A stretch of 64,000 bases of DNA from an uncultured Gammaproteobacteria bacterium (GTDB lineage Bacteria; Patescibacteriota; Microgenomatia; Levybacterales; UBA12049): contig CAYQEE010000002.1 in assembly GCA_964416445.1 (NCBI GenBank), forward strand, positions 42,691 through 106,690, given 5' to 3'. Shown piece by piece: positions 10,996-43,887 of this stretch; positions within the stretch are counted from its first letter, which is position 1; every line of letters begins with the position of its first letter. The position numbers were made by a program, and so were the translations under genes. Below the pieces are notes generated by a model. It was not told the DNA's origin. It saw nothing but the letters and a program-made list of their open reading frames with translations, and searched no databases.

Positions 10996-11012
10996 TAACT
11001 ATTACGAATAAA

Positions 11013-12976: not shown

Positions 12977-12993
12977 AGAAATAACTAATTCAG

Positions 12994-13066
12994 TGGACCT
13001 GAGCGGATTCGAACCGCTGATCTCCACAATGCGAATGTGGCGCATTACCAACTGTGCTACAGGCCC
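12994..13066 (-). tRNA. tRNA-Ala (anticodon CGC)
   Basis: Minus-strand sequence GGGCCTGTAGCACAGTTGGTAATGCGCCACATTCGCATTGTGGAGATCAGCGGTTCGAATCCGCTCAGGTCCA. Anticodon loop UUCGCAU gives CGC. G3:U70 is present. Confidence 0.85.
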
Positions 13067-13104
13067 ACATATGATTCAAATCTTATACTCTATTATACAC
13101 ACTT

Positions 13105-14247: not shown

Positions 14248-14299
14248 GTGGGTGAAAAAGATGGTAACAAACTTATTAATTTATGTCAAATTAGTAAGC

Positions 14300-23403: not shown

Positions 23404-23421
23404 TTTTTGTACTTAAGTTCT

Positions 23422-23535
23422 CCGGCCTTGACCCATTGTCCCGATGAGCTAGGCTCACAAGTATCGTAGGCGCTGAAGTGTTTCACTTCTCTGTTCGGAA
23501 TGGGAAGAGGTGGTGCCACTTCGCTCCAAAGACCG
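23422..23535 (-). rRNA. rrf: 5S ribosomal RNA
   Basis: The minus strand reads CGGTCTTTGGAGCGAAGTGGCACCACCTCTTCCCATTCCGAACAGAGAAGTGAAAC…GGGTCAAGGCCG. It contains the universal CCGAAC…GAAGTGAAAC motif. The 5'/3' ends pair as helix I (7 bp). Confidence 0.85.
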
Positions 23536-23599
23536 AAAGACTTCAGTACAAAAACAATTACAAAGAGTTGAAGCTCTCTGAAAAGTAAAGAGAAGAAGA

Positions 23600-26880
<3,281 letters not shown>

Positions 26881-27002
26881 AAATGTTAATATGCATTAAC
26901 ACTAAAAAGACCTTCTTCTCCTCACTTGTCAAAGAGCTTCTCTCATTATCATCTAAGGTAAACCCCCTCTTTCTAGGGGGCTTGCCCTAGATGATACTTA
27001 AG

Positions 27003-27075
27003 TGGACCGGAAGAGATTCGAACTCTCGACCTTCGCGATGCAAACGCGACGCTCTACCAGCTAAGCTACCGGCCC
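27003..27075 (-). tRNA. tRNA-Ala (anticodon UGC), at the 5' side of the 23S gene
   Basis: Minus-strand sequence GGGCCGGTAGCTTAGCTGGTAGAGCGTCGCGTTTGCATCGCGAAGGTCGAGAGTTCGAATCTCTTCCGGTCC. Anticodon loop UUUGCAU gives UGC. G3:U70 is present. Confidence 0.85.
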
Positions 27076-27307: not shown

Positions 27308-30300
27308 ATGATTGAATTAGATCAAGCTCCCGCACCAAAACCACTAGCAAAACCAGCAAAAGTTAAAGTAAAACCAATATCCGAAAGAGTAACTACAAGC
27401 GCTCGTGATACATTAGAGAAAATGTTTGGATTGGCTCCATTACTCCCCGCGCCGACGAAAACTCCTGATAAAAAAAACAAAAAACCACCTGAGGTGGATA
27501 TTACTCGCCAACCTACACAAAAATTGCCAAGTATAGATATCGAAGACCAACCGACTCAAATCTTACCACGTATAGATATGACCCGCCAACCTACACAAAA
27601 ATTGCCGAGTATAGATATTGAAGACCAACCGACTCAAATCTTACCACGAATTGAGCTATCTCTCCCTCATACTAATGAAGCTCCTGTACAGTTTGATTAT
27701 CCCCCCCTGCCACCAATGGAACCGCATCATCCCGAGAATGAACCTATTCAGCAAGAAGAACGTTTTCCAAATATGGATAATGAATACATGCAAAAGGCAC
27801 AGCAATATCTAGAGCCTGTTATGTTAGCACCAGCTTTAGAATCTACCTTTCAGTATCTTTCAGAAACAAGAGACCTTGATTTTGATTTTAACTCTGAACG
27901 ATATAAACAAATCCATGAAATTACAGATAAAATGAGCGAAGGATTTTTGTTTAAACCCAGAGTGGTTATTATGCGAAAAGGCAACGATGCATTCATTGGA
28001 TCTGATGGCACTATATTTCTTGCTCAAGGATTAATAAATAAACTTGATACGTTAGACGAAGTTGGAGCAGTTTTAGCTCATGAAATTAATCACCTTATTC
28101 ATATGGATGTTTGGCGTACTAACTCAAATAATGCACGACTATTAGATTATGAGGCCGTCGGTTGGTTACAAGAATTTGCAGCCGATATTGGAACAATGAA
28201 ACTCTTGGAAAAAGCTGGTCTTTCATCAGATGCATTTCGGACTGCAATTATGAAACTCGATTCAACAAAAGGTTTTACGCACCAAAGTGGTGGCATGCGT
28301 GCATTAGAAGTACAATTAGGACATGAAATTTGGAATTATGACACGAGTGATCAACCGCAACAACCAATGCCTGAGACATGGAAACAGCAAAGCAGGCTAA
28401 CAAACCTCGAAATTATAAATAATGGGAAACATAAGAGAGATTATGGTTACTACCCTGACGGAAAAAATCCAGAGGTATTTGCCGCATTAGCAAAGTTACA
28501 TAGAGTAGATTTAGAAAAACTTTACTCGCAAGATAATCGTCTTGATTATAACTTTGGGGAAAGTGTCATAAGATTTTTGTCTGAACGATTACGCACATAT
28601 GGATATACCGAAAGTCAAATCCTCACTTACTTTAGTTCATCATTAAAAGATGTAAATTTTGCAATTATAAAGGAGCCAGAACAGGCGGTTGACGTATTTG
28701 ATCATTTACATGAATATATTAACGATAAAACAAATGAAAAAATAGAAAACGACCTTTTTGGAATAAAACCGAACAAATGGCGTGAGGCAACAACATTTCC
28801 ACTTGCTAGCCTTCTTTATAAGCTTATGAAAAATATAAAAGTTGGGAATTCTTGGCACTCAGAAGAATTGCCAGTTACCGAAGATAGTTTTATTCATATC
28901 CTCCAAAAAATCTCAGAATTTGAAAAACTTAGTTTTGGTATTACTGCTGAAACGTATATTACAAAAGCAGTTCTTGAATTTATAGATTCCGAATTCTCTC
29001 ATGGCTGGTGGGAGAATGGAAAGGAAGTTAATTTACCAAAGACAAAAGCGTTTTTATACAAATTAAAGGCTGCTCATATTCCCATAAAAACAGAGCAAGT
29101 AATTAGCAACTATCAACTTGATTATGGTCTCTTAGCACGACATCATTTTAGAGATACTGATTATCTGAATATCATTGATTTTTTGGAAACAGAGTATGAA
29201 GGAAAACCTCGGACAAGTATTGAAGAGAAAATTGATACATTTTTCCAAGATATGTCTCGTGGACCAAAATCTCAAGAGGATATCAATAAACAAGGAGCTC
29301 AAGTAAAGGATTTTTTGTTGCGACTTAAGTTTGATTTTAATCGGGAAGAGATTCCTGAACATATCCGAATTACGTATATAACAGATATTTTAACTCGAAT
29401 TAATGGATCAAATTATGCAGTATCTGATAATATGGTAAAGTATTTAAAAAATAACTTTCCATCGGTTATCAGTTCTGGCTTAACTCCACCAGAATTGCTT
29501 TATCATAATCAGACACAAAATGGCGATACATTTATTATTTCACCTGATATGCAGGAAGATCTTATCACTTTATTAAAACCGGAGAATCTTGAACGATATA
29601 ATCAAAAGATTCAAGCAAATATACAAAAAATGATTAAATTTAACTTACAATTAATGACCATTAAAAGTCTCTTTAAAGAGGATTCACAAGGATACTACGA
29701 CACAATAGTCAAAATAATGAACGAAAGTGGTATTAACAGTAACAATATAGCTTTCTCTGAACTAATGCATTTATCCAGCCCACTTTTTAAGAATGATAAA
29801 TATTTTAACAATTATCAATTATTATTATCGGGTGGAAGTTTCGATAAAAGTGTTGCCTCAGTAGACTGTAATAACTATGATCTTCTAACACAACTACCAT
29901 TTATAAAAGACCTCATCGATAGAAATAAAGAAATTTCCGTAAATTCTATGGACGAACTCTATAATTATACAAATAATCTTACTATGTCTTTAGAAGGTAT
30001 ACCCGGTTTTCGAAGGGAATTATTTTCAGATTCTCTAACTACGTTAATTATCACAAAACCAATTCAAGAGGCATACTTACGATTACTAAAGCAAGGGATT
30101 CCTGAGAATCAACTCTCTGCACAATATAAATTTATTCGTGATTATTTTCCTGAAGACCCCGGTAAAAAGGGCTTTTTAAAAGAATACAATTTAAAAATCC
30201 TTTCATCCCCTAGCCTTTCACTCCAACATAAAATAAATCATTTACGTGAGAATATTCGATACATTGGACCTGAAGGACTTATTATTCTTGGTGAACAAAT

Positions 30301-32671
30301 ACAAACTATTGAAGAATACCGCCAATTTCGATACGCAATGGGTGAAGAAATTAAAAAATATTTATCTCCTTCTTCACTTTTAACACAAATAGCAGCAGCA
30401 GACTATTTATCAATGTATTTTAACCGGGGATTTGACTTGATCGCCTCTTGTGATTCGTCAGATGAAGCAAAAGTTCGCGAATCAACAAAGTTAGCCGAAG
30501 AATGGGTAACAAATTTCTTTACCCGTGTGTACTATTCTTCAGAACATCTTGAATATTTACATCGAGAAACAACAAAAGTTGAGTATGACCCTGTTAGTGG
30601 AAAAATCGTCCTTGATGATATAAGAAAAAAAGTATTCCGCTCATATCATGATCTTCTTAATATTTTACATGATTTAACACCTTCACAACGTTTTGCAATC
30701 GCGAGCAAATTACTTGTGGAGGAACCACATGGAGCACTCGTTACTTCGGAAAATAGATCTAAACTAGCAACCTATTTGAATGATGCTTTGCAAGCAAAAG
30801 GATTTATGAAGATTGCTCTCGAACAGGCAATTATTAATGGCGATCAAACACTTCTCGCTTTACCTGCTGCTGCAATGATTGGTCCATTACTATTTACTGG
30901 CTATGATGAACAAGCAATTAATTATTCAAAAGTCATGCAGACTGAAGTTGAAGATCCAACTCCAGAACAATATGCAAAAATCCCTTTTAGTAATCTTATT
31001 CCGAATCAAAGAATTCCCTCACTTATGCAATCAACTACTCAAGATATCGTCTTCTTTGGTAGAGAATATAAAAATTATCCACAATCAGTCGTTTACCAAT
31101 TGGCTGAAGGATCTCGAGAACGATATTACGAAATTTATGCATATCTTGAAAAACAAACACGAAATTTAGCAGGAAAACCAGAAACCCCTGAAAAACAAAC
31201 AGCGAGTTATAAAGGTGTCGAAGCAGTAATTAGTGGGATCCAAAAAGCGAGTGCATTAGGCGTACGGGCACTTCAATTAACAAGTCAATTTTTTCATTTC
31301 TCCTCTCCAGAATTAAACAAGCGACTCGCTGAAAGTTTTGATAATAATCCTGGTATGAATAAACTTGTTTTTTGGGAAAACTTATATAAGATGGCAGAAG
31401 ATGGTAAAACGAATCCAAAATATAAATTTTATGAAGACTTTGTCTGGACAGACCATAACGAACCTACGAAAGAAGGAGAATATAAACTGGTAAGTATTGG
31501 AGACGCACTTGGACAAGGAAGCTTATTTACTACTCGAGCAGCAAAAATAGTAGACCGGAATGGAAATATTAAAGACGTTGCTCTCAAGCAATTAAATCCG
31601 AATGCAGTGAAACATATCGAGGATTATTATAAATTAGGTATGAATACACTTGAACAAGTTATACTCCATGGTACTCCCGAAGAAGTTTATTATGCAAATA
31701 TGGCAAAAATGATTCTCGATTTATCCCAAAATTGGTGTTTAAAAGATATTAATGATAAAGATTTTGATAAAAATGATGAATTATTTAGAAGTGCAATCAT
31801 AGCTGTTTATAACCAACAAGAAGGAAATAATGCCGTTTTTGCTCCTGTTGTATACTTCAATCAATTTAATATGCAATGTGAAGAACTTGTTAGTAATGGA
31901 GTAACATTAAATAAATTTTTGCATAGCAATAAACCAGCTGCAGAAATCAAAAAAACAATTAATCAAGTTGTTAACTTCTATCAGTTTCAAATGCATGCAA
32001 AACCTGCTATGCAAATTGAAGGAAAGGATCATTACATTGTTCATTCAGATCCAAATATTGGAAATTTCATAGTAGGAAGAGATGACAATGCTGTAGCCGT
32101 TTTGGATAGAAGAATGTATCTTATTTTAAATGATACTCAGATGAACGTGGGAAGAAAAGTCCTCGAAGGTGCTTCACGAGAAGAACTATTTCAAGCTTTT
32201 ATTGAAGCAGTTTGTGAAGATAATAATATTCGAACTCCTGAAGAGAAACTAATAATTTCACGAAATGTATTATATTCCGTGGGAAATCATTTGGGATTAT
32301 CTGCAGCAACTTTAAAACGAGAAGAATCTTTTTCTGAAAAACTATCATTATTCGGTAGTTCGCTTCGTTCCATGCCAAAAGGTATACGTTCTCTTTCCGG
32401 AGCGATGAAACAACTCAATGAAACAGCATCTGATGAAACAGAACCAAATAAAGTTCAACGAGCATTGAGATTACAAAGAGAGCTAAATAAACTAAAAATT
32501 CTAGGAAAAAGAATAAGTAGAAAAAGTGTCAAATCTCTTGATTCAATGGAATTTCTCCAAATCGCTGTCGAAAAATTATCTCAACAACAAATACATGTCT
32601 CATTAAATACCCAGCTTGCTGTGAGAAATGCGTCTGCTATGAGAGAATTGCAACAAAGATATGCTGCGTAG
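27308..32671 (+). CDS. Giant (1787 aa) mosaic protein: low-complexity repeat N-terminus, M48-like zinc-metalloprotease motif region, C-terminal ABC1/UbiB-like atypical kinase domain
   Basis: …VVIMRKGNDAFIGSDGTIFLAQGLINKLDTLDEVGAVLAHEINHLIHMD…QEFAADIGTMKLL has the M48 HExxH + ExxAD pattern. C-terminal …SIGDALGQGSLFTTRAAKIVDRNGNIKDVALKQLNP… matches a Gly-rich loop/VAxK. …HSDPNIGNFIVGRDDNAVAVLDRRMY matches the ABC1 motif HADPHPGNxxV…DfG. No signal peptide or TM helix seen. Confidence 0.6.
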   Translation: MIELDQAPAPKPLAKPAKVKVKPISERVTTSARDTLEKMFGLAPLLPAPTKTPDKKNKKPPEVDITRQPTQKLPSIDIEDQPTQILPRIDMTRQPTQKLPSIDIEDQPTQILPRIELSLPHTNEAPVQFDYPPLPPMEPHHPENEPIQQEERFPNMDNEYMQKAQQYLEPVMLAPALESTFQYLSETRDLDFDFNSERYKQIHEITDKMSEGFLFKPRVVIMRKGNDAFIGSDGTIFLAQGLINKLDTLDEVGAVLAHEINHLIHMDVWRTNSNNARLLDYEAVGWLQEFAADIGTMKLLEKAGLSSDAFRTAIMKLDSTKGFTHQSGGMRALEVQLGHEIWNYDTSDQPQQPMPETWKQQSRLTNLEIINNGKHKRDYGYYPDGKNPEVFAALAKLHRVDLEKLYSQDNRLDYNFGESVIRFLSERLRTYGYTESQILTYFSSSLKDVNFAIIKEPEQAVDVFDHLHEYINDKTNEKIENDLFGIKPNKWREATTFPLASLLYKLMKNIKVGNSWHSEELPVTEDSFIHILQKISEFEKLSFGITAETYITKAVLEFIDSEFSHGWWENGKEVNLPKTKAFLYKLKAAHIPIKTEQVISNYQLDYGLLARHHFRDTDYLNIIDFLETEYEGKPRTSIEEKIDTFFQDMSRGPKSQEDINKQGAQVKDFLLRLKFDFNREEIPEHIRITYITDILTRINGSNYAVSDNMVKYLKNNFPSVISSGLTPPELLYHNQTQNGDTFIISPDMQEDLITLLKPENLERYNQKIQANIQKMIKFNLQLMTIKSLFKEDSQGYYDTIVKIMNESGINSNNIAFSELMHLSSPLFKNDKYFNNYQLLLSGGSFDKSVASVDCNNYDLLTQLPFIKDLIDRNKEISVNSMDELYNYTNNLTMSLEGIPGFRRELFSDSLTTLIITKPIQEAYLRLLKQGIPENQLSAQYKFIRDYFPEDPGKKGFLKEYNLKILSSPSLSLQHKINHLRENIRYIGPEGLIILGEQIQTIEEYRQFRYAMGEEIKKYLSPSSLLTQIAAADYLSMYFNRGFDLIASCDSSDEAKVRESTKLAEEWVTNFFTRVYYSSEHLEYLHRETTKVEYDPVSGKIVLDDIRKKVFRSYHDLLNILHDLTPSQRFAIASKLLVEEPHGALVTSENRSKLATYLNDALQAKGFMKIALEQAIINGDQTLLALPAAAMIGPLLFTGYDEQAINYSKVMQTEVEDPTPEQYAKIPFSNLIPNQRIPSLMQSTTQDIVFFGREYKNYPQSVVYQLAEGSRERYYEIYAYLEKQTRNLAGKPETPEKQTASYKGVEAVISGIQKASALGVRALQLTSQFFHFSSPELNKRLAESFDNNPGMNKLVFWENLYKMAEDGKTNPKYKFYEDFVWTDHNEPTKEGEYKLVSIGDALGQGSLFTTRAAKIVDRNGNIKDVALKQLNPNAVKHIEDYYKLGMNTLEQVILHGTPEEVYYANMAKMILDLSQNWCLKDINDKDFDKNDELFRSAIIAVYNQQEGNNAVFAPVVYFNQFNMQCEELVSNGVTLNKFLHSNKPAAEIKKTINQVVNFYQFQMHAKPAMQIEGKDHYIVHSDPNIGNFIVGRDDNAVAVLDRRMYLILNDTQMNVGRKVLEGASREELFQAFIEAVCEDNNIRTPEEKLIISRNVLYSVGNHLGLSAATLKREESFSEKLSLFGSSLRSMPKGIRSLSGAMKQLNETASDETEPNKVQRALRLQRELNKLKILGKRISRKSVKSLDSMEFLQIAVEKLSQQQIHVSLNTQLAVRNASAMRELQQRYAA
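27506..27661 (+). repeat. 78-bp perfect-to-near-perfect tandem duplication (2 copies) in the 5' part of the 1787-aa gene
   Basis: cgccaacctacacaaaaattgcc[a/g]agtatagatat[c/t]gaagaccaaccgactcaaatcttaccacg appears twice in tandem. It encodes TRQPTQKLPSIDIEDQPTQILPRI ×2. Confidence 0.85.
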
Positions 32672-32682
32672 ATTACCTCATT

Positions 32683-34605
32683 CTAAAGTGCTTGGATAAT
32701 TTTTTTCACATTCGTAGTATTCAATTCGTCACTAAATCTTTTATATTCTTTGAATGTAGGTTTTCGATGCTTTCTGCGTTCATATTCAGCGACAATTTGA
32801 TCTAAGTTAGCTTTCCTCATTCGAAAATCACTACTTGAACGCATTTTTTGAAGAGTTATATGTAATGGCTCACCTATAGGGTATACCCTTTGCGCATATT
32901 TATCTGTAGCATATGAGTTACGTCCCAGGAGTACTTTATACAAACGACTCACATCGGCAGTTTCACCTAAAGCATTTCTTTTTTCTGATCTATCAAATTC
33001 GTCAACCATAAGATTTTCTGATAATTGTGTAAAAGAATAACGAGCAAGTACATGATCTCTAATCATTGACACAACATCTACCCATGCATGATCTGTATTG
33101 TAATCTGCTCTTCCTAATGCTTCATTTCTTAAAAGACGCATATCTTCACGAAGTTGGGTTATCCAGTTAGCATTTTCCGCATCATAAAGTACATGTTCCT
33201 GAGCCATACGTCCTCGAATATCAGCTAATTGAACTCCTTGGGGGATTTGTTTATAGAGACGATAATAATAGGCGAATCCCCAGGGATCAGGTTTTCGATG
33301 TGCTTCTTGTTCATACAGATGTTCCACTTCTTCCTTTTCTCTTATATTTTCCGCATGTTCAGGCCTAACGATCAACTGATCAAATAAAATGCCTAACGTT
33401 TGTGGACTACCTCCAGGACCACCGGAGAGAAAATTTCGAATCTCAGGAATTTGTAATGCAGCACGTCTATTTGGTAATCGAATACCCAATAATAAGTCAT
33501 ACATTTGAATTGCTTCATCAAGATTAATCATATTTTCAGCTCTCTGCAACGAACCACCGCCGAGAAAATTATCTGATTCATCAAAATTATTATCTGGATC
33601 CATTGCAGTTTGATGATCTCTAAAAAATTTATGCCAAACAAAACCATCTCGCGCATTTAACCCATCACGAAATTGTTTACTTCTAATAGCTTCTTCTTGT
33701 ATTTGTGCAAGTGTCATCCCTTGCGCTTGCTTTTCAAGCATAAGTGCTTCATCCTCTTGATCTAAAGGCCATGTTTTAAAAAATCGATACCACGACGTAA
33801 ATGCACTATCATCATTCCGTATATGCCAAGAATCCGCGCCTAAAATCTTCCCTTCAGTTTTTACCGGAGGTACTGAGCCATGCTGTTCCATCATTGAGGT
33901 AATTAATTGAACATCACGCTGTTTCATTCTTTCCATCCCATCATCCGTTGCTGCTTCATGAACCATCCGAAGACAGTTCGCAGCAACGACGGTGAAGTCA
34001 CTAATATGCATTGTTTGTCCAAAGGCAGGGAGAATATATTGATGCTCTAATTTTGCTTCAAGATCTAAAATATCAAGTATTTCTCTTCTCATAATCCAAC
34101 TTTCATCTAAGCTTTTTCCCGGTACTAAATTTTCTAAAGGTAACGCATTAATTCTTTCATTATATTGCTCGGGAGTTTCCACTCCCCTTGGAGGAAACAG
34201 ATGAACAACTGCGCGTAATTGCTCAGGAGATAATTGATGATACCCAGTCCGAGCAAAATACTCTCCAATCGCATACGCTGCATGAGAATACACTTCCCCA
34301 GATTGTACCGCATTTTCTAATTCAGGAGATAATTGTTGCAACCAATTACTATCTTGTTGGTCATAGGTAAAAAGTGCTTTTTGATCTTGAGGTCGTGGAT
34401 ACAAATGAGAATTAATCTGTTGTGCTGAAAATTGTTTGTCTGCCGCAGCTTGTAACGCGTTTCCCCATCCTCTACCCCGCTCATCTAATGATAGATTTGC
34501 ATTTATACAAGTTTTTATGCCAGTATTAATTTTCTCCGTTAAAAGATTTTCTCGATGTATCAACTGTGGACCAGTTTCTACGCCTTGTGATAAAAAATCA
34601 GACAT
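32683..34605 (-). CDS. Hypothetical 640-aa protein, paralog of the adjacent 510-aa protein (shared ~250-aa N-terminal domain)
   Basis: The two are alignable by eye, e.g. AAYAIGEYFARTGYHQLSPEQLRAVVHLFPP vs AAFAILEYFLRSDYHNLNEEQINSFSSMFPP, and ESWIMRREILDILDLE vs ETWVMRREILDMLEVS. No known domain recognised. No TM or signal. Confidence 0.6.
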   Translation of the reverse strand: MSDFLSQGVETGPQLIHRENLLTEKINTGIKTCINANLSLDERGRGWGNALQAAADKQFSAQQINSHLYPRPQDQKALFTYDQQDSNWLQQLSPELENAVQSGEVYSHAAYAIGEYFARTGYHQLSPEQLRAVVHLFPPRGVETPEQYNERINALPLENLVPGKSLDESWIMRREILDILDLEAKLEHQYILPAFGQTMHISDFTVVAANCLRMVHEAATDDGMERMKQRDVQLITSMMEQHGSVPPVKTEGKILGADSWHIRNDDSAFTSWYRFFKTWPLDQEDEALMLEKQAQGMTLAQIQEEAIRSKQFRDGLNARDGFVWHKFFRDHQTAMDPDNNFDESDNFLGGGSLQRAENMINLDEAIQMYDLLLGIRLPNRRAALQIPEIRNFLSGGPGGSPQTLGILFDQLIVRPEHAENIREKEEVEHLYEQEAHRKPDPWGFAYYYRLYKQIPQGVQLADIRGRMAQEHVLYDAENANWITQLREDMRLLRNEALGRADYNTDHAWVDVVSMIRDHVLARYSFTQLSENLMVDEFDRSEKRNALGETADVSRLYKVLLGRNSYATDKYAQRVYPIGEPLHITLQKMRSSSDFRMRKANLDQIVAEYERRKHRKPTFKEYKRFSDELNTTNVKKIIQAL

Positions 34606-34619
34606 ATCTTCTTATTCCG

Positions 34620-36152
34620 TTATATTTTAGTATACACGCCTCTCTTATCCTTTGAGAGTGCCATTGCGATATCTCTCATCACATTATCAGCAAATACTTG
34701 ATTTTTTTGTCCGATTGAGTTCCCTGGTAATTGATCTGCTTCATAAGTTTGTGGCTTTGTAAATATTACCTTATGAATAAAAGAACCATTTGACAACATT
34801 TCTTCACTGAAGGCTACTCCTACCACTGGGGCATGACTTTGCCTTGCGAGTAACCCTATTCCGCGTTGTGGACGTAACACTTCCTCTGCAGGAACCCCCT
34901 CAGGAGAAAGTAGAACAGCCTTGCCCTGATTGAGCGAATTAAGACAACTGTCCATAAAATTTGTTCCTTTCTTGTTTGCATTTGAAACATCAATCATATC
35001 AATATCATATAACTGACTAGCGCGCTCAACGCATTTATCGAGTAACCAAGGGAATTGTCTTTTGAGTAATTTCGGAGCTGTTTCAATGAAATAATTTAAA
35101 TACGCTACTAAAGCAATTCCTTTAGAATCTCTTTTCCCCTTTACTTCCTTAATCAGTGTTGCTAGTTCCCAGTTACTCGGTATTTGTCTATCCTTCCATC
35201 TATCTGTCATATGAGAGAATGCAATAACAACTGGACCACTTTTCGGAATATTCTCTACACCTTCAACATGTATATCTTCAGGCAGATCTAATATTGTCTC
35301 CATATCATGTCTAAAATCACGTGTTTGTGGGTTAGCTACCATTGATAGTAACATTAAAGGATGAGCAAGAAATCTTAACGTTGTTTCCATTTTAGACTTT
35401 TTATATGTGCTAATCTGATTTCCATTTAATGCATCTAAATCACGAACATTTATTTGATTCATACCACTGATCGTACTGGCTTGATGCACAGTATGTAATG
35501 CATCTCCACTAATTCGCATGAGATCAGTTATATATATCGTTTTCCCACGTGTATGTGAGAGAACTTTACGATTAATATTATTACTAACCTCAAGCATATC
35601 TAGTATTTCTCTTCGCATAACCCAAGTTTCTTCGGGTGATTTGTTAGGAACAATTACATTTGCGGCTTCTGATTCAACACGGTGTTTATAGGCACCAAAG
35701 TTTTCCTGATGAGCCATAGGAGGAAACATGCTCGAAAATGAATTTATCTGTTCTTCATTAAGGTTATGATAATCTGAACGCAAAAAGTATTCAAGAATTG
35801 CAAAAGCAGCTTGTGTATTAATTTCTCCCCGTTTTACCCTTTTCAACAATATGGGCGAATAACTCTCCAGTATTCTTTCATCTACAATAAAAGATTTATC
35901 AATAGTTGGTTGTTTATATTCAGCAGGACGAATATTTTGGGCAAGTTGTAAGCGAATAAAATATTTATCAATGACATTATTTAACGCATTATTCCAAGCT
36001 GCCCCTCTTGCTTCTAGTGGCTTGCTTGTATCCATACACGTACGCACATCTTGGCTAATTCTTTGAGTAAGGACGCGTTCTTTTTGTAATCTATTTTCTT
36101 TAACTACCTCACGTGCAATGGGTGTACGCAGTAATGCTCCTTCAAAAACCAT
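34620..36152 (-). CDS. Hypothetical 510-aa protein: N-terminal domain paralogous to the 640-aa neighbour; C-terminal PlsC-like (lysophospholipid) acyltransferase-like domain
   Basis: The C-terminus …EGVENIPKSGPVVIAFSHMTDRWKD…LLSPEGVPAEE…APVVGVAF resembles acyltransferase motifs I (xH…D) and III (FPEG). This call is tentative. Confidence 0.5.
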   Translation of the reverse strand: MVFEGALLRTPIAREVVKENRLQKERVLTQRISQDVRTCMDTSKPLEARGAAWNNALNNVIDKYFIRLQLAQNIRPAEYKQPTIDKSFIVDERILESYSPILLKRVKRGEINTQAAFAILEYFLRSDYHNLNEEQINSFSSMFPPMAHQENFGAYKHRVESEAANVIVPNKSPEETWVMRREILDMLEVSNNINRKVLSHTRGKTIYITDLMRISGDALHTVHQASTISGMNQINVRDLDALNGNQISTYKKSKMETTLRFLAHPLMLLSMVANPQTRDFRHDMETILDLPEDIHVEGVENIPKSGPVVIAFSHMTDRWKDRQIPSNWELATLIKEVKGKRDSKGIALVAYLNYFIETAPKLLKRQFPWLLDKCVERASQLYDIDMIDVSNANKKGTNFMDSCLNSLNQGKAVLLSPEGVPAEEVLRPQRGIGLLARQSHAPVVGVAFSEEMLSNGSFIHKVIFTKPQTYEADQLPGNSIGQKNQVFADNVMRDIAMALSKDKRGVYTKI

Positions 36153-36159
36153 AGATATA

Positions 36160-38943
36160 TTATTGTCCTCCTGCTCCTACTACAATTTTTTCATTAAATG
36201 CACCAAAGATACCACTCTCTCCTGCATGAGCTGCAGCTAGATACCAGTCGCCATGGTCTTCCCAAGGTATTGATCTCCAAATATTAATCCATGTGGGAGA
36301 AGGTTGATCAGTAATAAATTTCTGAAAAGTCTGAGCGACATCTACGGGATTTTGATCTTGATACCCAAGTAATCGACGTCTATGGAGATTTTGAGCAGCA
36401 TCCATTAGTCCTTTAATAGCAACCTGATTCAAAAGTAAAAGGCTTTCCCGTGAATACCCTCGAGCAGCAACGTTCTCGGTAGGATTTTTTCGGGCTATTT
36501 TAGGTCCGACACCTCTTTTCTTGTCTTCAATAGCGGTAGCAGATGAATACGGACCATTATACAGAGCTTCAAACACTAAAAGCATATTATATGGATCGAG
36601 ATTAATTCCTGCATTCCCATTATCTTGCAAAAATCCATGCACGTGAGGAACATTCAATCTTGCATATTCACTGATATCTAAAAATTGTCCATCAACTACC
36701 TTTGCAGGATCAAGATCTTTTAAAAGAGCTTCAAATTTTAGAAACGTTTTTCCTGATCCACAGATTTGATCAGTAAGAATTACTTTTTTTGCTTTATCAA
36801 TACCTAATTGTTTAATGTATTTCTTATAGGTTTCTCGAAATTGAGCATCATCATCAAAACGATCAACAAATGCTCTCGAGACATGCATATATTTTATTTG
36901 ATCAGCTTTCACTCCCTTGTATACATCTGGTTCAAGGAATCTCATTAATTTTGCAACGACAGCCATTCCTAATCCATCACGTGCTAGGCATAACATCATA
37001 TCCATCTCCCCATTTGCTAATCTTTTAAGCTGTTGGTCAACAAGAGCTAAATAAGCAGGACCTGTTACTTCTCTTGATTTGTGATATATTTCCTGTGCCA
37101 TTTCACGCATTCGTGCACGTTCATGTGCAGGAACATGATAATTTTCCATCATTTGATCTATTTCAGCTTTTGCTTCTTGATTTTGTGAGTATAGATGCGC
37201 TTGGAGTGCTCTCTCTGCATAACCGGAATAATTATTATGATAAAAATCAGCTTTATCGAGATCTCTGTATGCAGTTAAATCTGGATTATTATATTGAATC
37301 GCATTCGCTCCTGCATTTTTTCCTCCCATTGCATCGTCCCAGGGATTATCTCCTACATGAATAATACGATCATAGCCACTAACTCCTAATTTATCCCATG
37401 AATAATGAAAAAAGTCTGTTATATGAGGTTTTTTCATTTTTCCCATCTGAGAAGAATAACTAATCGCAGCTTGATCAAGATTGTTACGATCAAAATTATA
37501 AAAATATTCCAGTAATCCAAATTTATGTAATACCCGTCTAATATGCTCACCAGACCAGGATGCATTTGAAGTTAATGCAACTTTGACTCCCATTGCATTA
37601 AGCTGTCGTAATGTATCTAACGCTCCCGGCATCGCACATGCGGTCTCTAATTCTACCGTATACCATGATTTTACTAAGTCTTGAACAATTTGATTGCGTA
37701 ATTGAGATGCATTGTTAGCTGGTTCACTTTTCGTAACAAATCTATTCCATAATTTAGCTACTCCTCTACTTTGACCCTGAACCTGATCTTGTAAATGGGT
37801 GATATTTTTTAGTCGAATGACATCATCTAACATCCACTTCATCGTTTCTTCAATTTTTACTTCATTTCCCGCTGCTTGGAATTCATCCCAACGTTTTCGC
37901 CAAGCTTCCCTACTAATTTGAGCAAATTCTGCTTCAGTCAAGGTGATACCGTATTTTTCCTCAAGTATTGTTACTGCTAATGTATCCATTCGATCTCTTC
38001 TTTCCTCTTGGCCACTTGACCATTGCACAAGAGTATCATACATATCAAAAGATACCGCTTCAATTTCAGGATGATTACGAGTTATATCAAGTATTTGTGT
38101 TAAATTTTGAATTTCTGTTGGCATTTTATCTTTTTCCACAATCGCCTCTACGAGCATTCGCATACTATCATTGGTAAAACAATCTCTAAATTCATTATTT
38201 GCACTTACAGCTATTCCAACAAAATTTGCAAGAGGAACTCGATCAGGATTCGCTGATTGCGCCTGGACTGACTCTAATGCATGAGCTCGCATCAATGTAT
38301 CTGCAACTAAATTTCCAATATCATTATCAAACATATTAATTTTTGACAAATCTTGATGAGCAACAATAAAACTAATTGCTCGTGCTCGGTCAAGAGGTGT
38401 CATGTCATATTCTCCAGTTTCCATAACAGAAGCGAATGCTACTGCTTGCGATTTGCTAATTCTTTTAGAACGATACATTTGCTCGAGTACTGTGCCCCCA
38501 TGCAATCGTAAATACTGTAAATCTCGTTCAGTTGCTAAATCTGGCGTGTAGTCTTCTTCTGTTGTTCGAATTGTTGCTTGGGTCTCTTTTCTTTTTGCAT
38601 AATCAGACATAAGAAGGTCCATTACTTTTGCTGCTGAAGCATTATCCATAGAATTACTCCCTGCCATTACTTCATTTGCGAAAGCAATTGATACTAACCG
38701 AGTACGGGCGTAATTTGACAAGCCATCAAAATTAGCTGTCATAAAACGAACTCTATCTAAAGCTGCATCTGAAACAGTAATATTCATCGCTATAGCAGTT
38801 TCATGGAGTGATACTTTGTTTTTTGACGATATTATTGCATTAAGATTTCGTTGCGTATTATCAACACTAGGAATACTATTAATCTTTGTTGTAGATTCTT
38901 GCGGTAAAGTCCCATTTGATTCAACTAATAAAACATCTGACAT
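36160..38943 (-). CDS. Large (927 aa) protein with an embedded HAD-superfamily hydrolase domain
   Basis: HAD motif I VSFDMYDTLV. Motif II …LTSNAS…. Motif III K (KKPHITDFF). Motif IV HVGDNPWDDAMGGKNAG. Downstream is a P-loop-like string ILTDQICGSGKTFL. N- and C-terminal regions are unassigned. Confidence 0.6.
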   Translation of the reverse strand: MSDVLLVESNGTLPQESTTKINSIPSVDNTQRNLNAIISSKNKVSLHETAIAMNITVSDAALDRVRFMTANFDGLSNYARTRLVSIAFANEVMAGSNSMDNASAAKVMDLLMSDYAKRKETQATIRTTEEDYTPDLATERDLQYLRLHGGTVLEQMYRSKRISKSQAVAFASVMETGEYDMTPLDRARAISFIVAHQDLSKINMFDNDIGNLVADTLMRAHALESVQAQSANPDRVPLANFVGIAVSANNEFRDCFTNDSMRMLVEAIVEKDKMPTEIQNLTQILDITRNHPEIEAVSFDMYDTLVQWSSGQEERRDRMDTLAVTILEEKYGITLTEAEFAQISREAWRKRWDEFQAAGNEVKIEETMKWMLDDVIRLKNITHLQDQVQGQSRGVAKLWNRFVTKSEPANNASQLRNQIVQDLVKSWYTVELETACAMPGALDTLRQLNAMGVKVALTSNASWSGEHIRRVLHKFGLLEYFYNFDRNNLDQAAISYSSQMGKMKKPHITDFFHYSWDKLGVSGYDRIIHVGDNPWDDAMGGKNAGANAIQYNNPDLTAYRDLDKADFYHNNYSGYAERALQAHLYSQNQEAKAEIDQMMENYHVPAHERARMREMAQEIYHKSREVTGPAYLALVDQQLKRLANGEMDMMLCLARDGLGMAVVAKLMRFLEPDVYKGVKADQIKYMHVSRAFVDRFDDDAQFRETYKKYIKQLGIDKAKKVILTDQICGSGKTFLKFEALLKDLDPAKVVDGQFLDISEYARLNVPHVHGFLQDNGNAGINLDPYNMLLVFEALYNGPYSSATAIEDKKRGVGPKIARKNPTENVAARGYSRESLLLLNQVAIKGLMDAAQNLHRRRLLGYQDQNPVDVAQTFQKFITDQPSPTWINIWRSIPWEDHGDWYLAAAHAGESGIFGAFNEKIVVGAGGQ

Positions 38944-39078
38944 AATTATAAATTTATTAGATCAACTATTTCACTAGCTGCATCGTTTGTGTTTTCATTT
39001 TGAACAATTTCGTCTAACTTATCATTATAATAAGAGACCTCTTCAGGTAATGAATCTTTTTTACGGTTACTTTCTTTT

Positions 39079-42000
39079 TTATTGTAAGGTAAGGTCTTTA
39101 GTTTTTTCATACAAGGTAATAAAAAGGAATAATTTATCATCAACGTCTGGCGCACTAAGATTAATTAACGGTCGTTGTGATAAAAATTTCGCTAATAAAA
39201 TTGATACTCCTCGAGATAAATTAGGATCAATTGATAAATCTGGGAATAAAACAGCTAATGCATTTACTCTATCTATGAGATTAATATCAAGGGATGGCTC
39301 TTCTTTCATACTTTCCTGAGGAGGATTCTTTTTAAGCCATACGACCATCTCTCTAAACCATCCGGCAGCTGTAGATTCACTTACGCCTGCAAGAAGAGCT
39401 TCATCCTTAAATTCTCTTGATCTGTTTAACGCGAGCGAGCGAGATTCTGCTGCTATTGGGGAGAGATGTTCATCAGCTAAAAATAGCTCGAGGTTCATTT
39501 GATCAACAGCAACAAATCCTTCTGGAGATTGATTCAGCTGGGCTAATTGTTCAAGTGATGGATTGAGAGGAGTATAAGGTGGAGCAGATGGTGCTGTATT
39601 TGGTTGACTCTCTACTGGTTGTTGCACTGGTCTTTGAGGTTCTGGTGTTAAAAGATTATCAAGAGCCTGTTGCAGTTGAGGCGTTATCGGAACATCTGCA
39701 TTTTGAGGTTGCGATCCTCCACCCGGAAGAGTTGGAGTTTCAACAGGTGGTACTCCCCTTCCATTTACTTCTTGAGAAATAGGTGCAACTGGAGAAACTT
39801 GGGGGGTATTAGGCCGAGGATAAGTAGGAACATTCATTCCATTCCCCGATCCTGCTTCAATAGGCGTTTGCGGTAGTGGAATACCTCCTACTGGTTGATT
39901 AAGTTGCGATGGCCCAGAAGCTTGCCGATTCCCTGGCATTGGAATATTAACTCCATACTGATACGGATTATTTACATTAATTTGTGGTTGTGGTGGAATA
40001 TTTGGGCTACCGGGAGGAGGAGTAATATTTGGACCATATTGATAGGGATTATTAGGAGTTTGCGGTACGTTTGGTGATGGCTGAATATTAGCGCCTGATT
40101 GGTAGGGAGAATTTGGAGCCAAAGGTGGTGTGGGAACATTCCCAACTGCTGCCGGTATTGGTGGTACATTCGGAGTAGTTGGAACCGGTGGAAGATTTGG
40201 GTTACCTCCATTATTTTGAGGCCCCGGCGCTTGATTAATAGGAGGAATATGGACTTTCTTTTTCTTTGGTGGTTCAGGAGGAGGAAGTCCAATACCAGGG
40301 AGATTTTGTTGATTATTTATATTTGGGCTAATGGGAGCATTAAGTGCAGCATTTGCGGGAGATAACGCATTCGCATTATAAGCGTTATTGGGAATTTGAG
40401 GCCTATTCTGTCGTGCAAACCCACTCGAACTGTATGGACTATTTGGGTTATAAGGACTATACGGATTATATGGACTATATGGACTCGGAATAATTGGAGG
40501 TGGAACTTGCGGAATGGGAGGAAGGCCTGGTGGAATTGTCGGACCGGGTGTTCGATCAACTAAGTCTCGCGGGTTAAAGATTAAAGGAAGAATAGGAGCA
40601 TCTATTGGTCCACCTGGCCCTGGTATGTTTTGCGGTACAACTCCAAAATCAATTTCGTTTATTGGTGTCGTAATTGCAGTTCTTGGTACAATAGAGACAG
40701 TTGCAGTAGATGTTTCGTTAAAGGGACGTGAAGCAAAGAAATGCATTGTAATTCCTTTTGTTCCATGTTGGATCCAATTAGAAGATTCTATAATCTGTCC
40801 ATTCGAATCAGTTGGAACACCCGCACCAACCCAGGCAACGAGTTCATTCGGCGTTCCTTGAGGAGTTTGTAATTCCGGAGGAAGAATTGCTGTACCATCC
40901 TTGCCACATGGTAACCAAAGTTCTTGACCACTTTTCAAACGTACAACCATAACCATTTTATCGTGTGGAATTTGGGGAGGATGGAGTAAATCGGTAATAT
41001 TTTTGTTTACATCAATAATATGTTGTAATTCTGTATCGTTATGATTTCCTAAGAATTTTGTATACTCAGAAATCAATGCTTGATATTTATCAGGATGGGT
41101 AAGCGCGTCTTTCGGCAATAATCCTGCTTCAACAAGACCTTGTATACGAGACTCAAGACCAAATTGCTCTGCGGTAATTGGATTTGCTAATACTCCCCCA
41201 AAGTTTAATGCCCCTTTATGGTTAAACCAGTTGCCTCCATTCGTCCAATCACGACCATCTCCCCAATGTAAATCTAATTCTAATCCTGCATACTGCTGAG
41301 GTACTCCTCCATTCATTCTTGTTAAATTGGTATAGTCACTAAATATATGATGATAACTCTCACCATAGTTTTGTGATTCAATATATGCTCCATATTCAGT
41401 AAGTAAATCTGGATGATGTTGGTAGAGATTATTCCAAGCATCGTTGAGTTGTTGAACTGTTTTAGGATTGTCTACAACTGCCCATAAATTTGCACTTGGA
41501 TCTGAAGCATTTTGAGGATCGAGAACGAGATTTCCATTTGCATCATGAGACATAATGAAGGTATAGTCATGTCCATTATGATCAATAACTGTTCGCATAT
41601 GGGACAAATCAACATTTTTGACATGATAACCGTCGGGTAAATAAAAATTAATTCCTGATTTATCGTGAATAAGATGACCATAATTTTGTTCTGATTGAAT
41701 TATTTTAAGTATTTCACTATCGTTTCCATGATTTGTGAGATCCCATTGTTTGAAGGCAGTCTCAACATGGCCTTTTTGTAATAATGCATGTTCTTTTGTC
41801 GCTATTTGAAAGTCAGAAGGCAATACATCATGACTGCTTAAAGGTGCACCTAAATGCCCTCCATTAATATCACTAATATATTGATAATTATATGTTTTGC
41901 CAGTAACATGATCGATAAAGGTAATTCTATGCTGTCCTGTTAAAGACGCGTCCCATCCTTTCGGTAAATTTAGCTGTAAATTGTTTGCCACTTTATCAAT

Positions 42001-43887
42001 ATGAAATCCTGGTCCCGAGGAGATAAGATTTGGTTGACGATGAAATATTGTATCAATTGTATTTCCTACGTTATGAACCCCAGCCGCAATTGATTGTCCA
42101 GCCTCACCAATTACTTGTCCTGGATGAGATACTGTTTGCACAGCATCGCTCACTAATTGTCCCGGATGTTGTGCAATCGTCTCAATAACCGTTGGTGCAA
42201 CAACTTGATGAAGTACATCTCTTTCAAATAAGGCAATTGCTTCTTGATCAATAAGTCCAAGAGTAATTGCTGAGATAGCAGCAATACCTGCCTGTCTTCT
42301 TCCTTGCGCACTAATATATGCTTTTGCACGTTTATCCTTTATTTCAATATCTTTTTGAATTTTATCCTTCCAGGCCTGTTTAAATCGCTCTATTAATGTA
42401 TTGACATCCGCTTCAGCCATCCCATCATCAATAAGCGATTGACGCAGTGCTGTGGCTTCATGCTCTAATTCTTTTTCTTTGGGTTTTATACTTTTATCTT
42501 CAAAATTAATAAGTCCTTTATTTAATAATCGATAATCTAATCTTGTGATAATCTCAGCTGCTCGTTCAGCGACCTTATCTCTATCAGATCCATGATTATA
42601 CGTTACCGTATGCAAAGCATTTTTCAATTCAGCAACTGATTTTCGCTGAATACCATATAGATCAGCTCCTCCTCCATTCATAAGCTCGCTATATGACGCC
42701 ATTTCATATTCAGTTGCTCGTAACGCTTCACGACGTTTTACTTCTCCCCTGGCAAGAAATTCTTTAACAAACTGAGGAGTTATTTTTGAAGGAATTTTCT
42801 TATATTCTCGGTTGAGTAAATAATTTTTTGCTCTCCCCGGCGCTAATTTAGCAATTCCTCTCAGAATTAATCCTGGAGGCTTAGGTGCTCTGGGACCAGG
42901 TGGAGTAGCATAATCTCCACCATATTCCCCTGCAGCTCGTCCTTTTTGAATATCTTTTTTCGCCTCATACCTTCCTCTGAAGCCAGCTATAACCACACCA
43001 ATTGTCGTACCAACAGCAGCTCCTGCAACAGGAATAAATCTTCTCGCCGCACCGGAAACAAGTCGCGAAGCGCCAAAAGCAACAATTGAACAGGCAAGTG
43101 CTGCACCAGTAGGACTTAAGAGATATCTCATTCTGGACCGTTGTGACCAACTGATAAACTTATCAAATTTACTCAGTTCAATACCTGTTGCATGAGCCCA
43201 TTTTGGATTCGCGATAAGAATGTTAATATTTTTATCAATTTCAGCTAAGGCATATTTATTCGTATCGATATCCTGTTTACATCGTTGGCCAAATTTTAAA
43301 AATTCGCCTGTCGCAGCAAATTCATCCGCTACGGTTGCAAAAGGATCATCTTTGTTATATATCTTCTTAACAAATTCAGATAGATTTGGGTCCTTACTGT
43401 CTGCGTATCTTCGAGCAAATTCCCGAAGGTAATCGTGCATTGTTGTCTCATCGGTAATTCTTCCATCTATCACTGGTTTCACCAGTTCTTCAATAATTTT
43501 TTCTTTCAAAACACCTTGCGCCTTATGAATATCACGAGCTCCTTCTGTCAATTGAGAGGTATATTGCTCGCGAACATGGTGAACTGCCTCTACTTCTTCT
43601 CTATCATGTTGTACCTTTTGTGCCGCTGCTACAGCGGTTGTAGCATCCATAGTAAGGAAGGAATTACCGGCTGCCTTCATGCGCTCTCGTAAATCACGAG
43701 CATTCTTGTAAATATAATAATCTTCAAAGGTGTGTAAACCAATTTTCTTCCAAAATCCTGCGCTCTTCATATCTCTTTCCCATTGAGCACGAGCTTCATA
43801 ATTTGCCCTTTTTGTAAGTTCTTGGCTCTTGTTGGCAATTACTCCAGTATTCTCTGGAGTTACTGGTATATCGGGTGTTACGACCAT
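39079..43887 (-). CDS. Giant (1602 aa) membrane protein: coiled N-terminal region, two TM helices (~aa 255-300), His-rich middle, long proline-rich repetitive region (PYSPYNPYSPYNP; NPYQYGxNI repeats), acidic C-terminal domain
   Basis: ORF track. TM stretch LACSIVAFGASRLVSGAARRFIPVAGAAVGTTIGVVIAGF. A ~450-aa Pro/Asn/Gln-rich low-complexity region. No recognisable catalytic motif. Confidence 0.55.
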   Translation of the reverse strand: MVVTPDIPVTPENTGVIANKSQELTKRANYEARAQWERDMKSAGFWKKIGLHTFEDYYIYKNARDLRERMKAAGNSFLTMDATTAVAAAQKVQHDREEVEAVHHVREQYTSQLTEGARDIHKAQGVLKEKIIEELVKPVIDGRITDETTMHDYLREFARRYADSKDPNLSEFVKKIYNKDDPFATVADEFAATGEFLKFGQRCKQDIDTNKYALAEIDKNINILIANPKWAHATGIELSKFDKFISWSQRSRMRYLLSPTGAALACSIVAFGASRLVSGAARRFIPVAGAAVGTTIGVVIAGFRGRYEAKKDIQKGRAAGEYGGDYATPPGPRAPKPPGLILRGIAKLAPGRAKNYLLNREYKKIPSKITPQFVKEFLARGEVKRREALRATEYEMASYSELMNGGGADLYGIQRKSVAELKNALHTVTYNHGSDRDKVAERAAEIITRLDYRLLNKGLINFEDKSIKPKEKELEHEATALRQSLIDDGMAEADVNTLIERFKQAWKDKIQKDIEIKDKRAKAYISAQGRRQAGIAAISAITLGLIDQEAIALFERDVLHQVVAPTVIETIAQHPGQLVSDAVQTVSHPGQVIGEAGQSIAAGVHNVGNTIDTIFHRQPNLISSGPGFHIDKVANNLQLNLPKGWDASLTGQHRITFIDHVTGKTYNYQYISDINGGHLGAPLSSHDVLPSDFQIATKEHALLQKGHVETAFKQWDLTNHGNDSEILKIIQSEQNYGHLIHDKSGINFYLPDGYHVKNVDLSHMRTVIDHNGHDYTFIMSHDANGNLVLDPQNASDPSANLWAVVDNPKTVQQLNDAWNNLYQHHPDLLTEYGAYIESQNYGESYHHIFSDYTNLTRMNGGVPQQYAGLELDLHWGDGRDWTNGGNWFNHKGALNFGGVLANPITAEQFGLESRIQGLVEAGLLPKDALTHPDKYQALISEYTKFLGNHNDTELQHIIDVNKNITDLLHPPQIPHDKMVMVVRLKSGQELWLPCGKDGTAILPPELQTPQGTPNELVAWVGAGVPTDSNGQIIESSNWIQHGTKGITMHFFASRPFNETSTATVSIVPRTAITTPINEIDFGVVPQNIPGPGGPIDAPILPLIFNPRDLVDRTPGPTIPPGLPPIPQVPPPIIPSPYSPYNPYSPYNPNSPYSSSGFARQNRPQIPNNAYNANALSPANAALNAPISPNINNQQNLPGIGLPPPEPPKKKKVHIPPINQAPGPQNNGGNPNLPPVPTTPNVPPIPAAVGNVPTPPLAPNSPYQSGANIQPSPNVPQTPNNPYQYGPNITPPPGSPNIPPQPQINVNNPYQYGVNIPMPGNRQASGPSQLNQPVGGIPLPQTPIEAGSGNGMNVPTYPRPNTPQVSPVAPISQEVNGRGVPPVETPTLPGGGSQPQNADVPITPQLQQALDNLLTPEPQRPVQQPVESQPNTAPSAPPYTPLNPSLEQLAQLNQSPEGFVAVDQMNLELFLADEHLSPIAAESRSLALNRSREFKDEALLAGVSESTAAGWFREMVVWLKKNPPQESMKEEPSLDINLIDRVNALAVLFPDLSIDPNLSRGVSILLAKFLSQRPLINLSAPDVDDKLFLFITLYEKTKDLTLQ

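Follow-up and report, generated by a model that had tools for sequence, protein, structure and literature searches.

The 64,000-nucleotide stretch of contig CAYQEE010000002.1 analysed here (the window) carries a block of five large genes at 27308-43887, flanked by a tRNA-Ala(TGC)-23S-5S unit on one side and by trxB/trxA on the other. The genes are numbered P1 to P5 by rising coordinate; four of the five belong to an operon that has been passed down inside one group of ultra-small bacteria, of the candidate phyla radiation (CPR), and are not an imported island. Its member P4 is predicted, with fair confidence, to be a bipartite ribofuranosyltransferase-phosphatase dependent on phosphoribosyl pyrophosphate (PRPP). 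At a probability of roughly one half, the products of the operon form a cytoplasmic module, anchored to the membrane, for building or decorating an acylated envelope glycoconjugate that contains ribofuranose.

Conservation and composition of the cassette

The five open reading frames (ORFs) described in an earlier note on this DNA, one on the plus and four on the minus strand with lengths of 1787, 640, 510, 927 and 1602 amino acids (aa), are exact in their coordinates. The count of five, however, was too low, as seven genes are found; an ORF of 54 aa and the gene for a DUF5663 protein, which heads the co-directional array (hereafter the cassette), had been missed. Within the minus-strand array there are intergenic gaps of 7 and 14 nucleotides (nt) and one overlap. 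A consensus scan, which is weak evidence, detected no minus-strand terminator-like site inside the array and placed the strongest promoter-like site of the region at 44399-44371, just upstream of the DUF5663 gene. The tight gaps, the overlap and the lack of an internal minus-strand terminator-like site fit a single transcript.

The array of DUF5663, giant, small ORF, P4 and P3 is found again in at least six further, distinct CPR contigs (L015/16, L017, L018, L019, L021 and L023), the DUF5663 gene upstream of the giant being visible in L019 only and the L021 contig being cut at the C-terminal end of its giant; L025 holds the P4-P3 pair only. The gene order in these relatives is a giant of 1400-1730 aa, an ORF of ~60 aa, a P4-like gene and a P3-like gene. 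Relatives of P4 (n=9) and of P3 (n=11) are always adjacent, and the orthologues, which are full-length and in fixed order, share 32-44% (P4) and 38-48% (P3) identity over both domains. In L021, which belongs to a Candidatus Gottesmanbacteria metagenome-assembled genome (GCA_016194575.1), the small ORF, P4 and P3 lie upstream of tRNA-23S-5S, and both their order and their orientation are those of the window. From the synteny as a whole, P5-P3 is a vertically inherited operon of one CPR/Patescibacteria lineage, with Gottesmanbacteria and Levyibacteriota as its named relatives; in the window P2 would be its last member. The earlier statement that the block has no recognisable operonic function is not supported, in view of this recurrence and of the assignment of P4 to a known enzyme type described below.

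By contrast with the rest of the array, P1 and P2 occupy a variable slot and are lineage-specific additions. Toxin-antitoxin genes stand in their place in L021, while in two other contigs the P3-like gene is followed, at the P2 position, by an HD-domain protein (L019 11525-13228, 567 aa; L023 11497-12756, 419 aa) without the N-terminal domain (N-domain) that P2 shares with P3. In L018, a JGI contig, PrgI-, TraC- and VirB4-type genes of type IV secretion come after the P4-like gene. P1 has six relatives among 5.8 billion clusters, and a scan of GTDB representatives with P1 returned five loci, one labelled Candidatus Levyibacteriota and none with P2-P5. All P1 relatives reside in unrelated neighbourhoods and never beside the cassette, which places P1 outside it. 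A metagenome scan with the N-domain added one new contig only.

The composition of the block is native. The earlier note had suggested, from spot counts, a somewhat higher GC content (~35-38%) than in flanking envelope genes (~23-28%). Computed over whole genes, GC in the block ranges from 34 to 40%, the window mean being 35.0%, and the neighbouring trxB (37.9%) and rho (38.1%) are similar. No enrichment suggestive of foreign DNA is seen. The block genes have a GC content at third codon positions (GC3) of 0.21-0.25, within the 0.14-0.28 of the flanks, and by synonymous-codon distance to the non-block genes four block genes are among the five closest of 34, with P3 in the mid-range. The slightly raised GC of the block resides in codon positions one and two and hence reflects amino-acid content. 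No integrase or tRNA-flanked repeats were seen at the block, viral-contig scans with P4 and P1 profiles identified no phage relatives, and defence-system models (PADLOC) gave no match except a weak phosphoribosyltransferase (PRTase) match in P4. Uniform GC and codon usage together with conservation of the block in relatives, which the earlier note had itself named as evidence against its proposal, were found for four of the five genes.

Enzymes and partner proteins of the cassette

P4 contains, from its N-terminus, an all-helical domain, a HAD phosphatase module and a PRTase-like module. The internal HAD domain that had been recognised earlier in this 927-aa protein is borne out by Pfam (Hydrolase, E 2e-15; HAD_2, 1.5e-8). 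The AlphaFold2 (AF2) model of P4, derived from a nine-sequence alignment (mean local confidence score, pLDDT, 80.3; global score, pTM, 0.72), displays a helical N-domain at aa 15-290, the HAD module, two long helices and an alpha/beta core, with strands at 649-653, 683-686, 720-724 and 749-754, which is followed by further helices. In a Foldseek search of the PDB with this model the first rank is held by Bcs3, the multienzyme of the Haemophilus influenzae type b capsule (8A0M/8A0C, E 1.4e-12 to 1.8e-11, 683-868 columns including gaps), and the second by the polysaccharide ribofuranosyltransferase of Thermobacillus composti (7SHG, E 3.7e-10, ~700 columns). Ordinary HADs reached only 1e-5, and the whole-protein likeness thus exceeds that to single-domain HADs. 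The P4 family profile retrieved many HADs from the PDB plus a weak match to 7SHG ('ribofuranosyl transferase'), and weak Pribosyltran, APRT and PRTase_III-A matches in P4 also point toward a PRTase.

Members of the enzyme family to which Bcs3 and 7SHG belong are defined by an N-terminal HAD phosphoribose phosphatase and a C-terminal PRTase-like transferase; the latter takes ribofuranose-5-phosphate from PRPP and attaches it to a sugar, whereupon the phosphatase strips the 5-phosphate (PMC11127046, PMC11294581, PMC10299916). The module order of P4, HAD then PRTase-like, is that of the family definition (PMC11294581; PMC10299916). The known kin comprise the CrpP-CriT modules of H. influenzae Bcs3 (8A0C/8A0M), the PRP-gPRT enzyme of T. 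composti (7SHG) and Salmonella STM0726. Three groups of residues that are invariant in the P4 family, R655-D656, S689-R690 and D725..S730-G-x-T733, each directly follow one of the strands 649-653, 683-686 and 720-724. Bcs3 divides the usual 'DD' pair of PRTases, with D680 in loop 1 (S678-R679-D680) and E818 in loop 3; S707-R708 lies in loop 2, Arg and Ser residues serve as phosphate ligands, and the 5-phosphate loop (821-825) ends at T825; the P4 loop residues are placed after three successive β-strands like Bcs3 loops 1-3. The string CGSGKT, which had been described as P-loop-like, is instead, by its position, the probable 5-phosphate loop of a PRTase-type fold, and the P4 string VILTDQICGSGKT also resembles the classical PRPP motif of HGPRT-type enzymes. 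In the HAD module D300 is invariant in the nine sequences and the D+2 position is an invariant Tyr, so that P4 retains only the first Asp of HAD motif I, in common with CrpP of Bcs3, which keeps only the first Asp of its DXD motif (PMC10299916); PRP modules likewise have an invariant catalytic Asp.

P4 differs from Bcs3 and 7SHG in its extra 290-aa helical N-domain, which has no Pfam match, in its CPR lineage and in its partners (a giant held by a hairpin, and an acyltransferase of PlsC type), with no glycan polymerase or export genes nearby. P4 is a probable Bcs3/7SHG-type enzyme whose architecture and lineage are both new and to which a new domain is joined.

The acyltransferase partner, P3, forms with P2 the paralogous pair that had been noted earlier; the N-terminal domains of the two proteins are 33% identical over 218 aa (BLASTP, E 1e-40). 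The PlsC-like module that had been assigned to one of the pair is present in P3, where the Pfam family Acyltransferase (PF01553) scores 28.2 bits against a cut-off of 23, with only model positions 69-131 aligned. Like LPLAT/PlsC acyltransferases, a superfamily that includes PlsC and PatA, which acylates the sugar of a glycolipid, P3 has the His, the Asp, the PEG motif and the GVAF block, all invariant in 11 sequences (AFSH314, D321, P417-E418-G419 as motif III, and G445-V446-A447-F448 as the motif IV block), and NCBI names its homologue P0023 '1-acyl-sn-glycerol-3-phosphate acyltransferase'. P3 departs from PlsC in its lack of a membrane-binding segment by hydropathy and in the novel 245-aa helical domain fused in front. 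These features class P3, by its sequence, as a PlsC-superfamily acyltransferase with atypical H..D spacing.

The N-domain is rare and modular. An exhaustive phmmer search with P2 among 1.84 billion proteins returned 19 representatives, all of which match through this domain; its model has a pLDDT of 91 and no solved relative. It is carried by the acyltransferase family and a PP2C fusion (P0035), occurs as a stand-alone protein (P0030) and as a tandem duplicate (P0031), and is located at the C-terminus of P0029, P0034 and the 1575-aa P0033. In addition, P0040, a P4-like HAD-PRT enzyme with 28% identity to P4 over 519 aa, has the N-domain as its N-terminus (hhalign probability 96%, E 2.7e-9). 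The N-domain is a previously undescribed helical domain, rare and portable, that tags several of the enzymes encoded by these cassettes. Inspection of the parts of P0028 and P0029 outside the N-domain revealed strings like the nucleophile motifs of papain-type cysteine peptidases (NTCLFAAGVNAL, GICFFATPIALA), for which there was no Pfam match. P2 as a whole is assigned to no Pfam family. Its C-terminal 395 aa have no relative among the 1.84 billion representatives outside the protein's own 90% cluster and match Pfam DUF4214 below the cut-off (E 0.028), and this part is absent from the syntenic position in other contigs.

P5 contains a hydrophobic hairpin at aa 256-302, a weaker hydrophobic segment at 535-553 and a proline-rich stretch of ~375 aa (about aa 1076-1450, 21-34 Pro per 100 aa) with PYSPYNP and NPYQYG strings, in agreement with the hydrophobic segments and proline-rich repeats described earlier. 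No Pfam family matched P5, either at full length or as fragments. Its conserved C-terminal domain (aa 1441-1602) has counterparts by homology in the giants that precede the P4 homologues of L017, L018, L019 and L023 (E 5e-6 to 5e-12), and aa 744-1058 also match the L023 giant (E 7e-10). The giants, which evolve very fast, share with P5 only the ~140-aa C-terminal domain plus that one internal segment of L023, while some pairs of giants align over their full length. A full-length P5 family was sought and rejected, as phmmer and BLAST reach the C-terminal domain and the single internal L023 match only. A 1367-aa protein following DUF5663 in L006 was likewise ruled out as a giant by the profile of the giant C-terminal domain. 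In L018 this domain continues in frame into a PP2C domain, which argues that the C-terminus of the giants is cytoplasmic; the fusion and the secretion genes of this contig lie within 3-2336 and 5088-10069. Nothing above the Pfam threshold was found in four other giants, the middle of P1, the N-terminus of P4, the C-terminus of P2 or the P5 fragments. The 54-aa ORF is called as a gene in identical contigs, and ORFs of 58-61 aa take its position in L015/16, L017, L021 and L023; position and acidic composition are conserved, sequence barely so. The absence of signal peptides reported earlier holds for P1-P4, which have no N-terminal hydrophobic segment by hydropathy.

A proposed glycoconjugate module and its alternatives

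In the envelope-glycoconjugate reading, the PRTase-like module of P4 would transfer ribofuranose-5-phosphate from PRPP to an acceptor hydroxyl, and the HAD module would then remove the 5-phosphate. P3 would most likely acylate the product of P4 or its lipid anchor. P5, held by its hydrophobic hairpin, would act as a membrane scaffold or possibly as the acceptor, and the N-domain of P3 and P2, found elsewhere also on a P4-like enzyme and a PP2C protein, may dock these proteins to a shared partner. What the module would make is an envelope glycoconjugate, akin to a teichoic acid or lipoglycan, that carries ribose and acyl groups.

Several observations weigh against this proposal. Genes for glycan polymerisation or export (ABC/Wzx-type transporter, initiating transferase) are beside the cassette in none of the seven contigs, and without glycan-assembly neighbours its setting is unlike that of every characterised ribofuranosyltransferase locus. 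TM-scores between P4 and the solved enzymes are 0.2-0.4, low values that reflect differing domain orientations. A profile search (HMMER) of the PDB with the PRTase-like module gave no relevant match and, as HMMER is blind to this module, the PRTase assignment rests on structure, while the equivalence of the P4 and Bcs3 loops is positional and not a structural superposition. The N-domain of P4 matches that of P2/P3 only weakly (hhalign E 0.056 on the domains, 0.3 on the full-length proteins). In P3 the His-Asp spacing is H-X6-D in the window protein and H-X5-D in its relatives, rather than the canonical HX4D. The glycosyltransferases nearest to the cassette in the window are ~17-22 kb away, and neither other glycosyltransferases nor an exporter adjoin the cassette in the window or in L015-L023. 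Literature searches on DUF5663, on CPR with ribofuranose and on lipid acyltransferases of Patescibacteria found nothing relevant.

It is possible, albeit rather unlikely, that the cassette is instead an effector or cargo-delivery system in which the N-domain is a trafficking or recognition module. It would mark proteins as varied as the acyltransferase, the ribosyltransferase-phosphatase, PP2C and orphan payloads like the C-terminal part of P2 for export to a host cell, with the fast-evolving P5 as an adhesin or a conduit at the surface and the product of the small acidic ORF as a chaperone. The occurrence of one rare domain on at least five unrelated partners, N- or C-terminal, alone or duplicated, is consistent with such a system, as are the pairing of the N-domain in P2 with a lineage-specific orphan C-terminus, the restriction of the common part of the giants to ~140 aa and the episymbiotic lifestyle of the CPR lineage. 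The same applies to the neighbourhoods of some cassettes, as the L018 cassette abuts the PrgI/TraC/VirB4-type genes, L017 and L003 have Fic genes close to a cassette or a P1 homologue, and sortase/DUF11 genes are near other cassettes. Polymorphic effectors of the LXG, MIX and XVIPCD types similarly join one module to several unrelated enzymes, alone or duplicated, although the N-domain shows no fold or sequence similarity to these modules. P3 and P4, however, are full-length orthologues in fixed order and not polymorphic tips, none of the proteins has a signal peptide, and in structure P4 comes closest to glycan enzymes that have housekeeping roles in the cytoplasm. Further differences from polymorphic effectors are the lack of immunity genes, with no small conserved gene after P3 or P2 and no immunity-like gene after P3/P4, and of a consistent secretion-system neighbour, as secretion genes are adjacent in only one of the seven contigs (L018) and there is no positive sign of secretion. 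The inventory of domains given earlier is largely right, and an effector role keeps some probability, while the island and the missing operonic function that accompanied them are not supported. A related proposal, that the N-domain defines a CPR-specific enzyme-recruitment or effector-delivery system not described before, with P5 and its acidic partner receiving an exchangeable set of tagged enzymes that act on or into the host at the episymbiotic contact, appears unlikely.

Lipid scavenging or remodelling is a decidedly improbable function, in which P3 would re-acylate host lysolipids, the P4 HAD module would be a lipid or head-group phosphatase, and P1 would contribute UbiB-like and M48 activities at the membrane. 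CPR cells cannot make fatty acids or phospholipids and depend on hosts for lipids, and the UbiB family is linked to lipid and quinone handling, which fits with the UbiB-like motifs in P1, with the membership of P3 in the PlsC superfamily and with the naming of its homologue as a lysophosphatidic acid (LPA) acyltransferase. Conversely, the whole P4 model matches ribofuranosyltransferase-phosphatases and not lipins or lipid phosphatases, P1 is unlinked to the cassette in every relative, and P3 has neither a membrane-binding segment nor a canonical HX4D. Both this reading and that of an island fit the data less well than do the glycoconjugate and effector readings. The horizontally acquired island of effector genes that the earlier note proposed is the least credible, as P1 and P2 are indeed missing from the syntenic interval of L021, with its toxin-antitoxin genes, and P1 relatives are scattered, but for the block as a whole it is already contradicted by uniform GC3 and codon usage, by a conserved core that, in L021, where its surroundings can be seen, keeps its synteny with the rRNA unit, and by the lack of integrase, tRNA-flanked repeats, phage relatives or a defence-system match. 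Large size and mixed domains did not imply foreign origin, and the label 'effector island' was premature.

Variable neighbours, surroundings and meaning

P1 is an unrelated variable neighbour outside the operon. Its M48-type HExxH/ExxAD motif, noticed earlier, is confirmed by Pfam (Peptidase_M48, aa 200-295, E 7e-10; HEINH at 258) and by the invariance of the ligands in six sequences (H258-E259..H262, E289 and D293), and the family profile matches 3c37 in the PDB at E 1e-8. P1 resembles soluble M48 peptidases (Geobacter 3C37, BepA-type) in its HExxH and ExxAD third ligand and, unlike HtpX or Ste24, has no transmembrane helices; it differs from those soluble enzymes in that the module is housed in a protein of 1500-1800 aa and is followed by ~1000 helical residues and a kinase-like domain. 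P1 is best described as a giant protein, predicted to be soluble, whose M48 zinc protease is apparently active. A 78-nt tandem repeat in its N-terminus (27497-27648, 1.9 copies, 94% identical) encodes a 26-aa unit twice (TRQPTQKLPSIDIEDQPTQILPRI) and is absent from other family members.

The ABC1/UbiB-like kinase proposed earlier for the C-terminus of P1 has only moderate support. The motif HSDPNIGNF occurs at residue 1579, and in the family alignment the last 400 aa contain invariant LGxGSLxTT (G1402/G1404-S), K1427, H1579-S-D-P..G-N1586 and D1600-R. Comparison of the family profile with Escherichia coli UbiB (hhalign E 0.0019, 251 colinear columns, probability only 14%) aligns, in order, the KxGQ region, the Ala/Gly-rich loop, the catalytic Lys, HxDxHxGN and the metal-binding Asp. 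By this alignment P1 would have colinear counterparts of the five signatures of UbiB/ABC1 (COQ8) proteins, among them the VVIK lysine and the HxDPHxGN catalytic loop; it differs from those proteins in having 'DR' for DFG and no C-terminal membrane helices. Pfam, conversely, gave no ABC1 match on the full protein, nor on the C-terminal 487 aa at E up to 10, and phmmer and profile searches of the PDB with the C-terminus returned only non-significant kinase G-loop matches. A kinase-type fold is a reasonable call from these motifs, while membership of UbiB is unproven. We know of no fusion of a UbiB-like domain to M48.

Table 1. Genes and modules of the block and its borders, in window coordinates
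Feature	Position (nt)	Strand	Basis or remark
tRNA-Ala(TGC)-23S-5S unit	23420-27075	-	Rfam, ARAGORN; syntenic anchor downstream of cassette
P1	27308-32671	+	ORF, 1787 aa; convergent with cassette, outside it
P1 M48 module (candidate protease)	27905-28192	+	Pfam and family alignment
P1 middle			~1000 aa, helical, between M48 and kinase-like modules
P1 kinase-like module	about 31193-32257	+	Family alignment, hhalign
P2	32683-34605	-	ORF, 640 aa
P2 C-terminal 395 aa	32683-33870	-	Orphan region, degenerate DUF4214-like strings
P2 N-domain, aa 1-245	33871-34605	-	Paralogue of P3 N-domain
P3	34620-36152	-	ORF, 510 aa
P3 LPLAT/PlsC-type acyltransferase module (predicted), about aa 290-470	34743-35285	-	Pfam PF01553
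P3 N-domain, aa 1-245	35418-36152	-	Novel helical module
P4	36160-38943	-	ORF, 927 aa
P4 PRTase-like (gPRT/CriT-like) module, aa 572-900	36244-37230	-	Long helices, alpha/beta core 649-815, C-terminal helices
P4 HAD phosphatase module (CrpP/PRP-like), aa 294-556	37276-38064	-	Pfam Hydrolase, HAD_2
P4 N-terminal all-helical domain, aa 1-292	38068-38943	-	AF2 model
Acidic small ORF, 54 aa	38946-39110	-	Overlaps P5 end, abuts P4
P5	39079-43887	-	ORF, 1602 aa
DUF5663 protein, 119 aa	44005-44364	-	Pfam E 9.7e-9; first gene of co-directional array

The surroundings of the block have several features of their own. The rRNA unit lacks a 16S gene, and its 23S spans 3276 nt against a model of 2925 positions, which corresponds to ~350 nt of insertions; in L021, where the unit lies at 9056-14720, the 23S spans 5169 nt and contains two LAGLIDADG ORFs. 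A giant ORF at 2158-8853 (+) encodes a 2231-aa protein with two or three N-terminal phage-integrase SAM-like domains (PF02899, PF13495, PF13102), no match to an integrase catalytic domain, hydrophobic segments at aa 274-300 and 372-390, and native codon usage. The 2.4-kb stretch at 17450-19890 is AT-rich (GC ~26%); its ORFs do not exceed 59 aa, and searches for tandem repeats and for Rfam families (E up to 0.1) came up empty. A small cluster of redox genes beside the cassette comprises trxA-trxB, a YibE/F-like membrane protein and, at 47599-48561 (+), a 320-aa protein with two separate DsbA/thioredoxin_4 matches. Further along, a Fic-domain protein (55502-56554, -) is encoded beside an ATP-dependent DNA ligase (53686-55467, -).

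To our knowledge, the envelopes and host contacts of CPR/Patescibacteria are almost uncharacterised biochemically. The operon described here offers one concrete enzyme candidate, the predicted PRPP-dependent ribofuranosyltransferase-phosphatase, a type of enzyme so far described only in polysaccharide loci of cultivated bacteria and found here in another genetic setting, together with a new domain, modelled with confidence, by which several types of enzyme may be linked to giant membrane proteins. An envelope glycoconjugate, if that is what is made, would provide a marker of, and a handle on, these bacteria; the N-domain, should it be a targeting signal, would offer a way to list the cargo of a CPR system that has not yet been described.

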